64,000 nucleotides of DNA from an uncultured Nitrososphaerota archaeon (GTDB lineage Archaea; Thermoproteota; Nitrososphaeria; Nitrososphaerales; Gagatemarchaeaceae). The position numbers and the translations under genes were made by a program. Shown here in pieces: positions 56,278 to 57,154 of the stretch (its first letter is position 1; each line of letters opens with the position of its first letter). The stretch lies in assembly GCA_963703285.1 (NCBI GenBank), contig OY969807.1, positions 1,536,001 to 1,600,000 on the forward strand. The letters are read 5' to 3'. The notes under the pieces are model-generated. The model was not told the origin of the DNA, ran no database searches, and saw nothing but the letters and a program-made list of their open reading frames with translations.

Positions 56278-57154
56278 CAATCTTATCCGAAATTTCTTTC
56301 GGGATCAGACTATGTCTTCACCCTCCCGCACTTTCGAAGGAGGGGTTGGCGTATGATGGCTGACAGCGCACGTTGTCGCGGCGCGTCGGAACGCGCCTCG
56401 TGAACCTGCTTTGGGCCGGTTCTTGCGCTTAAATAACCAGTCTGCGCCCCTTCCCGGCATGTCAGACGGAAATCCGCCTTCATTCTTCCGGTCGTGGGAA
56501 CGCATGTGGGAGGTGCTGTCCTTCATCACCCTCCTGCTGGGAATCCTGGTCTTTCTGATAGCGCCCTTCGGGGGCGTTACCCAGACCGACGGCACGTATC
56601 TCCTGGCCATCAGCGTCGTCAGCGTCCTGCAGGCCATTTACTTTGACCGCAAGGCGCTCGAAACCGAGGCCAGGCAGGCCGAGGGACACCCAGCCAGCTA
56701 GTCATTTCGCCAAGCCATCTCATCACGCACATCTCTGCGCGCTCAGTCGTTACGGGGTCATATGGGAAGATCGATTCTACCCGTGACAGAAATACCGCAA
56801 CCAAAATCCACACCGGCCCGCCCTACGGCAGGACGGCATCTCGTCTGGTTGCGCCCGCTTGCATCCGCCGCCGGAACTTGCGCTCCGGAGCGTTTGCTGC
56901 CGGAGGATGTGTTCTCATTCGAACCCTTTCCTGTATTGTCCATCTTGGAAGAAGTGCCCTCAGTGGAGCGAACTCTTGGCTGTTTTGTTGCTTTAGCTAG
57001 AAGCAACCAATTGCTCGCTTACTTTTACCCATAGACTTCCCACGGCGTTGCCCTCTTCCGTTTCTTCAGTGTTCCCCGGAAGGAGGGGTTCGCCGTTATA
57101 AGCCAATGCTTCAAATCGCGTTACCGTGATTTTGCCCCGAGACCCGAAGGTCCA
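56278..57154 (-). ncRNA. Group I intron at L2500 (IA-like)
   Basis: Splits GGUACCU^CGAUGUC; exon ends in U, intron ends in G; R-like CCCGUAACGACU (about 56745-56757), S-like AAGACAUAGUC (about 56308-56318). Confidence 0.88.
56459..56701 (+). CDS. 80-aa two-TM protein inside the L2500 intron, antisense to the rRNA
   Basis: ATG 56459 to TAG 56701; two hydrophobic helices; TTAAATA 30 nt upstream. Confidence 0.6.
   Translation: MSDGNPPSFFRSWERMWEVLSFITLLLGILVFLIAPFGGVTQTDGTYLLAISVVSVLQAIYFDRKALETEARQAEGHPAS

Follow-up and report, generated by a model that had tools for sequence, protein, structure and literature searches.

Group I introns are thought to carry, at most, the gene for a homing endonuclease or a maturase. 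The rps3 gene, which sits in a group I intron of the fungal mitochondrial large-subunit (LSU) ribosomal RNA (rRNA) gene (mL2449), is a non-endonuclease gene with a cellular function. Genes read against the rRNA strand have been described as well. The I-DirII gene in an rDNA intron of Didymium iridis is reported to run antisense to the rRNA from its own promoter (Edgell et al. 2011, PMC3073962), the L2066 introns of myxomycetes are described as carrying antisense genes for His-Cys box endonucleases (PMC9548176), and TAR1 as a small protein gene antisense to the yeast 25S rDNA (PMC3026818). For archaea, Nawrocki, Jones and Eddy (2018) list LSU/2500 as an intron site and report two IA3 introns there (IA3.2 and IA3.3; 799 and 819 nucleotides, nt); in the available part of that text the only domains reported are LAGLIDADG, in 21 of 39 introns, and the words "antisense" and "membrane" do not occur (PMC6125680). 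Here we analyze a 64,000-nt stretch of DNA (the window) from an uncultured Nitrososphaerota archaeon of the Gagatemarchaeaceae (GenBank assembly GCA_963703285.1, contig OY969807.1, positions 1,536,001 to 1,600,000), in which an endonuclease-less group I intron at LSU/2500 carries, on the strand opposite the rRNA, an open reading frame (ORF) for a membrane protein of 80 amino acids (aa). The reading that we favor, at a probability of about 0.8, is that an autonomous, leaderless small-gene cassette (promoter and ORF, ~312 nt) rides in the dispensable P7.2 loop of this intron.

An earlier note, made from the letters of the window (the original prediction), had placed between the R and S core elements of the intron an 80-codon plus-strand ORF with two hydrophobic helices, and had taken it for non-endonuclease cargo of holin- or toxin-like topology. 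Its premise, that an ORF in a group I intron almost always encodes an endonuclease or maturase, is a reasonable starting point, with exceptions such as rps3. Like I-DirII and the genes of the L2066 introns, the window's ORF is a protein gene opposite the rRNA strand of a group I intron, with a putative promoter of its own. Those introns are eukaryotic and nuclear, and their genes encode homing endonucleases and come with RNA polymerase II promoters, spliceosomal introns and poly(A), whereas the window belongs to an archaeon, the promoter is of the TATA, leaderless type and the predicted product is a small membrane protein without a nuclease domain. The rps3 gene is sense, essential and tied to the ribosome, whereas the window's gene is antisense, optional and codes for a membrane protein. 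TAR1 is likewise a small protein gene read against an rRNA gene, but it overlaps the mature rRNA rather than an intron, belongs to a eukaryote and encodes a mitochondrial product. The intron itself shares the 23S site of IA3.2 and IA3.3 and is of similar length, a likeness of site and length rather than of subgroup model. In its available text, a survey of rRNA insertions in the candidate phyla radiation (CPR) has none of the words "antisense", "opposite" or "transmembrane" (PMC11270868). Among the papers listed by a full-text search, those on group I introns lack the term "membrane protein", and the one that has it concerns group II targetrons. In the literature searched we found no description of an archaeal rRNA gene whose group I intron carries, on the antisense strand, a self-promoted gene for something other than an endonuclease.

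The ORF is present as predicted, on the plus strand, from an ATG at 56459 to a TAG ending at 56701. The frame is already open from a TTG at 56411, and the conserved start is the ATG. Because frames of 50–110 aa are abundant by chance in this region (60% G+C DNA), 80 open codons alone are not beyond chance, and it is the comparative data that decide. A search of 5.8 billion proteins returned 11 metagenomic homologues of 74–114 aa on short contigs, with 57–71% identity (E 3.7e-23 to 6.9e-18). A genome of the same genus, G009, has a 37% identical ORF in the same place and on the strand opposite its LSU rRNA. Ten loci came from a scan of metagenomes; the ORF lies on the strand opposite the LSU rRNA gene in eight of them, and the exon junction is identical at every locus whose contig reaches a junction. 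The frame is open in 12/12 loci (11 distinct DNA sequences). Among these 11 sequences the mean pairwise differences at codon positions 1, 2 and 3 are 0.31, 0.21 and 0.44, and the ratio of nonsynonymous to synonymous substitution (dN/dS, Nei-Gojobori) is 0.09–0.76 over 55 pairs, or 0.09–0.55 if the distant G009 is excluded. Within a gap-free block of 120 nt compared in all six frames, frame +1 alone is free of stops in 10/10 sequences; the other five frames contain stops in 10, 4, 3, 8 and 10 of the 10. The pN/pS of frame +1 (0.43) is also the lowest, with the other five at 0.65–1.47. An overlapping minus-strand frame of 110 codons in the window is not preserved in relatives. The G+C content by codon position (0.60/0.44/0.80) agrees with that of the long ORFs of the genome (0.62/0.47/0.77). 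Homologues and dN/dS were among the checks that the original prediction had named; homologues exist and the ratio is that of purifying selection. As far as comparison of sequences can establish it, the ORF is shown to be a real gene under purifying selection.

That there is no gene here, and that the frame is a by-product of structured peripheral RNA or the remnant of a decayed endonuclease or maturase gene, is scarcely credible in view of these results. Chance frames of this length are common in so G+C-rich a region, and the P7.2 domain is partly structured, with two covarying hairpins. A substitution pattern specific to one frame, the only open one, speaks against a by-product of RNA structure, as do the absence of the whole segment from 10 related introns and the conservation of promoter and ORF outside any intron (both described below). 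Pfam scans that find no homing-endonuclease domain speak against a remnant.

The protein has two hydrophobic windows of 19 residues, with Kyte-Doolittle means of 2.71 and 1.43, in line with the two helices that had been claimed, and both are kept in 22/22 aligned members of the family. The short, mostly acidic loop between the helices is free of lysine and arginine in 21/22 members, and two to five of these residues follow the second helix in all 22, a charge distribution that fits a predicted topology with both ends in the cytoplasm. Family members are 67–80 aa long and share two motifs, NPPSFYxSFERFWE ahead of helix 1 and LQAIYFDRK where helix 2 ends, with E14 and Y61 invariant throughout. 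An AlphaFold2 model of modest confidence, computed with the alignment, has two long helices at 8–38 and 42–75 (mean predicted local distance difference test score 68.5). A two-copy complex prediction scored 0.00 and so gave no answer as to a dimer. Longer or fused forms of the protein were not found, which is weak evidence. LAGLIDADG, GIY-YIG, HNH and other homing-endonuclease domains of Pfam are absent from the ORF and from the 22 family members; as a positive control, the same scan recovered the ORF at 58287–58835 of the window as LAGLIDADG_3. The protein is neither a homing endonuclease nor a maturase.

Of the proposed holin- or toxin-like character, the topology stands and the family assignment does not, since no holin, toxin or defence family was matched significantly. 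A holin-like or virus-derived membrane protein, serving lysis, exclusion or a similar role and landed in the intron by chance, would share its two helices, its probably inward-facing ends and its charged C-terminus with class II holins. Weak matches to PHROG and Pfam holins occur in 3/22 members (best E 0.05) and in 1/22 (E 0.0034). Matches of this order are at noise level for hydrophobic proteins, PHROG gives nothing significant for the window's own protein, and endolysin or phage genes are absent near the intron and near the free-standing loci; we regard a holin-like or virus-derived protein as very improbable. Other matches dismissed as noise, along with these holin values, were E1-E2 ATPase (0.11), YrhC (0.012) and V-ATPase subunit e (0.28).

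Archaeal TATA boxes are centered ~26–27 nt before the transcription start. Upstream of the window's ORF, TTAAATAA occupies 56429–56436, that is, −30 to −23 counted from the A of the ATG, and is preceded by GCGC. A TATA element of the GCGCTTAAATA type is kept by all homologues: TTAAATA or TTAATA (the latter in G009) lies 21–26 nt before the ATG in 12/12 loci (11 distinct), with a spacer that varies, and the free-standing copy described below is included in this count. No Shine-Dalgarno-like motif precedes the ATG. Among the long ORFs of the host genome, the words TTAAAT, TAAATA, GCTTAA, CTTAAA and CGCTTA are enriched 8–14-fold at −38 to −28 over the DNA farther upstream, with rough gene calls and first ATGs only. 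The cassette element thus matches the host's leaderless-gene promoters in sequence as well as in position. Spacing and words are those of an archaeal leaderless promoter, composed of a TATA box and a B recognition element (BRE), with the ATG as the predicted start. The TTAAATA that the original prediction had noted ~30 nt upstream and read as a leaderless promoter is therefore borne out by its position, by its conservation and by the promoter words of the genome.

Copies of the ORF outside introns bear directly on the autonomy of the cassette. The metagenome contigs L010 and L011 overlap, are identical where they do so, and share the same ORF DNA. Their ORF is 60% identical to that of the window, has the same promoter and lies between the gene for a GNAT acetyltransferase and other ordinary genes; neither contig has an rRNA or intron match. 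BLASTN similarity to the window is limited to 56423–56680, the promoter and ORF. The identity is 76% over the promoter and 74% over the ORF, values that compare with 72–85% and 65–79% for intron-borne copies. In the ORF tree the free-standing copy joins the window's ORF (97/96) inside the intron-borne set, which suggests that it came out of an intron. Its neighbors (GNAT, DUF3052, SDR, DUF885 and a weak, sub-threshold bPH match) give no functional hint. The host of these contigs is kin to the present archaeon, since a 186-aa ORF just downstream in L010, which has no Pfam family, encodes a protein 71% identical to that of the plus-strand gene at 465–1013 of the window. A second, distant homologue stands alone in the genome G027 (profile E 8e-7), with CGCTTAATAAT ~22 nt before its ATG. 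As the free-standing copies are intact, the protein persists without an intron or an antisense partner in rRNA. That the TATA words survive outside the intron favors a role as a promoter over one in the ribozyme.

The intron that houses the cassette is precisely delimited. The archaeal rRNA operon lies on the minus strand of the window, with the small-subunit (SSU) rRNA at 61077–62574 and the LSU rRNA from 60884 downwards (Rfam), and two group I introns interrupt the LSU gene. The RNA of the LSU/2500 intron begins at base 57154 and ends, ...GAUUG, with the G at 56278; the 5′ exon closes with ...GGUACCU at 57155 and the 3′ exon opens with CGAUGUCGGCUC at 56277. Exon ...ACCU and intron ...GAUUG are the same in every locus where the junction is present. 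In 15 intron-less genomes of the order, all from other families, the flanks adjoin directly at query bases 328/1206, corresponding to 56277/57155 of the window. Since the flanks are contiguous at exactly these bases in 15 relatives, the boundaries are fixed independently of any intron model. The first base of the 3′ exon aligns to base 2500 of the 2903-nt E. coli 23S gene, a position that we take to be LSU/2500 to within one base, the usual numbering being that of a 2904-nt gene. We read the 5′-exon U as probably standing opposite a G in P1; the adjoining hairpin covaries. Rfam RF00028 gives a partial match only, over P8–P9 (56288–56344; 26.8 bits, E 8e-4), which does not reach the gathering score of 50. 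According to the available part of Nawrocki et al., RF00028 gave no archaeal matches and subgroup models were needed (PMC6125680).

Two side observations concern the same 23S gene. The second group I intron, at 57779–58870 on the minus strand, has a full-length Rfam match at 57779–58154 (54.6 bits) and, on its sense strand, contains the 182-aa LAGLIDADG ORF at 58287–58835 (LAGLIDADG_3, 6.9e-12). The Rfam LSU alignment stops at 56999, while the 23S gene runs on through the 3′ exon to ~55900–55970 (window 55900–56999); an automatic annotation of the 23S 3′ end would be wrong, as the LSU model is forced across the intron.

The fold of the intron was derived from an alignment of 18 related introns, 8 with the ORF and 10 without it. 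The helices written were the P1 extension, P2, P3, P4, P5, P6, P7, P7.1, P7.2, P8, P9 and two small hairpins, under names, P7.2 included, that we take to be those of subgroup IA. The 82 proposed pairs are standard pairs in 95.0% of 1342 cells, compared with 37.6–44.4% when the 3′ partners are slid by 1–3 columns. Compensatory changes on both sides occur at 26/82 pairs versus 2–10 in the slid controls, and none of 500 shuffles reached the observed covariation score, a figure that is not a probability. P4 and P7 are invariant across the 18 introns and are supported by conservation alone. The intron has the conserved group I core P3–P8 with its P3/P7 pseudoknot. As had been proposed, the ORF is flanked by the R and S elements, which hold the two strands of P7 (Table 1). 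Its place is more exactly the loop of helix GAUGGC/GCCAUC (P7.2), after P7.1 and before the 3′ strand of P3.

Comparison of related introns shows that the cassette is optional. In the same genus the site is assembled in 12 of 23 genomes (G000 included) and the intron is there in 12/12; the ORF is found in two of the 12, G000 and G009. Ten introns that lack it were fetched, nine from the same genus and one from a sister genus, and G017 has a further one, judged by the spacing of matches. ORF-less introns measure 601–662 nt and ORF-bearing ones 823–948 nt. The entire stretch from the 5′ strand of P7.2 to the UUCCGA hairpin is missing from the former, which have a short, different segment there; closely related introns are thus cleanly without the cassette. 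A scan of genome contigs with a 21-mer of the R element gave 25 loci, with the ORF in one, L053, whose 865-nt intron suggests the G009 genome again. A peptide-pattern scan of the contigs of species-representative genomes found no further copy of the ORF. A tree of the intron backbone, built with the cassette columns removed, requires at least four gains or losses of the ORF (three or more of them on branches with good support). The approximately unbiased (AU) test rejects a single clade for the ORF-bearing introns (p 1.6e-48) and does not reject congruence of the ORF tree with the backbone (p-AU 0.38). Lateral transfer of the cassette between intron lineages was considered and not adopted, repeated loss being equally good by this same value. 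The patchy distribution can be explained by repeated loss, by exchange of the P7.2 domain through recombination, or by both. The claim of non-endonuclease cargo stands on the selected homologues, the promoter kept in all copies, the free-standing one among them, and the absence of the cassette from 10 introns.

How such a cassette would work follows from its position. A leaderless mRNA would start at or next to the ATG from the cassette's own TATA box and would be transcribed head-on to the rRNA. This mRNA would be fully complementary to the pre-rRNA and to the excised intron. As a result of the head-on transcription and the full complementarity, the cassette would be coupled inversely to rRNA synthesis: its output would be lowest while rRNA is made at a high rate and would peak when growth slows or stops. 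The intron loop would be a safe harbor for a small accessory gene because splicing removes from the rRNA whatever has been inserted there, and a membrane protein that is useful or mildly selfish would penalize loss of the intron. Because the host genome (a single contig of 2.25 Mb, 60.6% G+C) has no second rRNA operon, the LSU/2500 intron must be spliced even with the cassette inside; that it is spliced we infer solely from this.

The same architecture invites comparison with addiction. Known type I toxins (hok/sok, tisB/istR) are mostly single helices of <60 aa, each paired with a dedicated small antisense RNA. As in those systems, the window's protein, whose tail is charged, is small and hydrophobic, and its predicted mRNA would find a complementary RNA from the other strand. 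A toxic membrane protein could be silenced by the pre-rRNA and the intron RNA, both abundant and a perfect complement, and by head-on transcription; cells that no longer made the antisense RNA, or that lost the intron with the mRNA still present, would be harmed, and the endonuclease-less intron would be stabilized. Patchiness and fast evolution, as seen in this ORF, are features of selfish genes, and the intron lineage persists without an endonuclease gene in 12/12 same-genus genomes in which the site is assembled. Here, unlike in type I systems, the antisense RNA is the rRNA precursor and toxicity is conjectural; the copy in L010/L011 and the distant homologue in G027 are both intact, yet no rRNA lies antisense to either. 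The two-helix protein has conserved polar motifs, and toxin or defence families go unmatched. We judge an addiction module distinctly unlikely.

Several points weigh against the autonomous, leaderless cassette that we favor. Both the plus-strand transcript and the protein are predictions, and the inverse coupling and the safe harbor are consequences that we infer. Selection is only moderate between the window and its nearest relative (dN/dS 0.55). The family is tiny, with 8 cluster representatives at E<=1e-3 among 1.84 billion, and has matches in 2/401 genomes of the class. Pfam, NCBIfam, PHROGs, PADLOC, the sequences of the PDB and the ESM Atlas yield no significant family for the protein. 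TATA-like words could, in principle, serve the ribozyme. The free-standing copy may record a departure from an intron or the source of the cassette, either way round. Decayed ribozyme flanks, looked for at that copy, were set aside: the upstream signal is marginal (80/2000 shuffles scored as high) and a downstream one is absent (1643/2000).

The LSU/2500 intron of other genera of the family has cargo of its own. In four of them (G027, G030, G026 and G032) the intron measures 809–1288 nt, with the additional sequence located in the P6 region, between P7 and P4. All four carry, antisense to the rRNA, a gene for a mini-protein of ~40 aa in which nine cysteines are invariant (CADCGC...CPxC...CCCW); the gene has a pN/pS of 0.31–0.52 with pS up to 0.73, and no homologues of the mini-protein were found in a large protein collection. 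The introns of G030 and G026 also have a rRNA-sense gene for a GYD-domain protein, with a pN/pS of 0.55. In G026 this gene has GCTTAAATAA 26 nt before its ATG; in G030 it and the cysteine-rich gene share a single TATA-like element, from which they diverge, and their start codons are separated by 54 nt. The LSU/2500 intron lineage repeatedly houses small non-endonuclease genes.

Other features of these and further loci are recorded as side observations. Antisense ORFs of 57–85 aa with two hydrophobic stretches occur in the P6 region of G027 (L034 850–1092 and 1173–1346) and G026 (L036 1197–1454); they have no detectable kinship to the window's protein. In G009 (L003 2284–3102) a 272-aa rRNA-sense ORF lies ~110 nt past the LSU/2500 intron and extends into exon sequence. 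By its look it is LAGLIDADG-type, which suggests a putative further intron there, without a counterpart in the window's gene. Records that contain the 21-mer of the R element bear the title Nitrososphaerota archaeon or Thaumarchaeota archaeon and, in one case, Candidatus Gagatemarchaeum stordalenia. The 21-mer also occurs in bacterial metagenome-assembled genomes, five of which (L040, L041, L051, L058 and L060) have the same exon junctions 306–847 nt apart and are titled Eremiobacteraeota, Andersenbacteria, Saccharimonadia, Thiotrichaceae and Blastocatellaceae. If the bacterial loci are introns, the LSU/2500 family spans both domains.

Table 1. Positions of the intron, its core strands and the cassette in the window, and of small genes in introns of sister genera (locus handles given)
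Feature	Position	Strand	Remarks
Group I intron at LSU/2500 of the 23S rRNA gene, endonuclease-less	56278..57154	-	877 nt; junctions read, flanks contiguous in relatives
Cassette-specific segment (small hairpin, promoter and ORF) in the P7.2-closed loop	56398..56709	+	~312 nt; without counterpart in ORF-less introns
BRE/TATA-like element, GCGC + TTAAATAA	56425..56436	+	TATA centered ~26.5 nt before the ATG
Gene for the 80-aa two-helix membrane protein (P0001)	56459..56701	+	homologues, dN/dS, frame conservation; probably leaderless
P7 5′ strand, in R element ...GUAACGACUGAG	56744..56748	-	pairs with 56308-56312; invariant in 18/18 introns; matches Rfam consensus
P7 3′ strand, in S element GAAGACAUAGUC	56308..56312	-	pairs with 56744-56748; matches Rfam consensus
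P7.2 5′ strand GAUGGC	56714..56719	-	pairs with 56355-56360; 99% of cells paired over 18 introns, one compensatory change
P7.2 3′ strand GCCAUC	56355..56360	-	pairs with 56714-56719
P3 3′ strand GCCAA	56346..56350	-	pairs with 57102-57106; one compensated pair (U-A 12/18, C-G 6/18)
Hairpin with conserved UUCCGA loop, part of the P7.2 domain	56380..56397	-	in ORF-bearing and ORF-less introns; 2 compensated pairs
Nine-cysteine mini-protein	L034 1383-1556; L035 1224-1361; L036 ~1130-1255; L037 ~985-1105	opposite to rRNA	conserved in four introns
89-aa GYD-domain protein	L035 900-1169 (G030); L036 781-1050 (G026)	rRNA-sense	Pfam GYD 3.2e-12 and 9.1e-18

A wider picture, rather unlikely as a whole, would make the LSU/2500 intron of soil and peat Nitrososphaerota a platform whose dispensable loops self-promoted small genes enter and leave, whichever way they point. 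The rate at which rRNA transcription passes over the antisense gene would set its expression, and its protein would act in growth arrest or addiction; an intron without an endonuclease would keep its place by making loss of the intron or shut-down of rRNA synthesis costly or consequential. Whatever the role of the protein, group I introns have been credited with an endonuclease or maturase gene at most, and here a conserved gene of another kind is found in one. Such introns can ferry ordinary small genes, and this cassette is oriented opposite to the unit that the cell transcribes most heavily. Standard annotation misses small proteins of this sort because they lie inside rRNA genes. If expressed, the cassette would represent a new class of intron cargo in archaea and a natural protein gene whose mRNA is fully antisense to pre-rRNA, useful for the study of transcription collisions and of the handling of RNA duplexes. 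It would also offer a route by which introns that lack an endonuclease persist.

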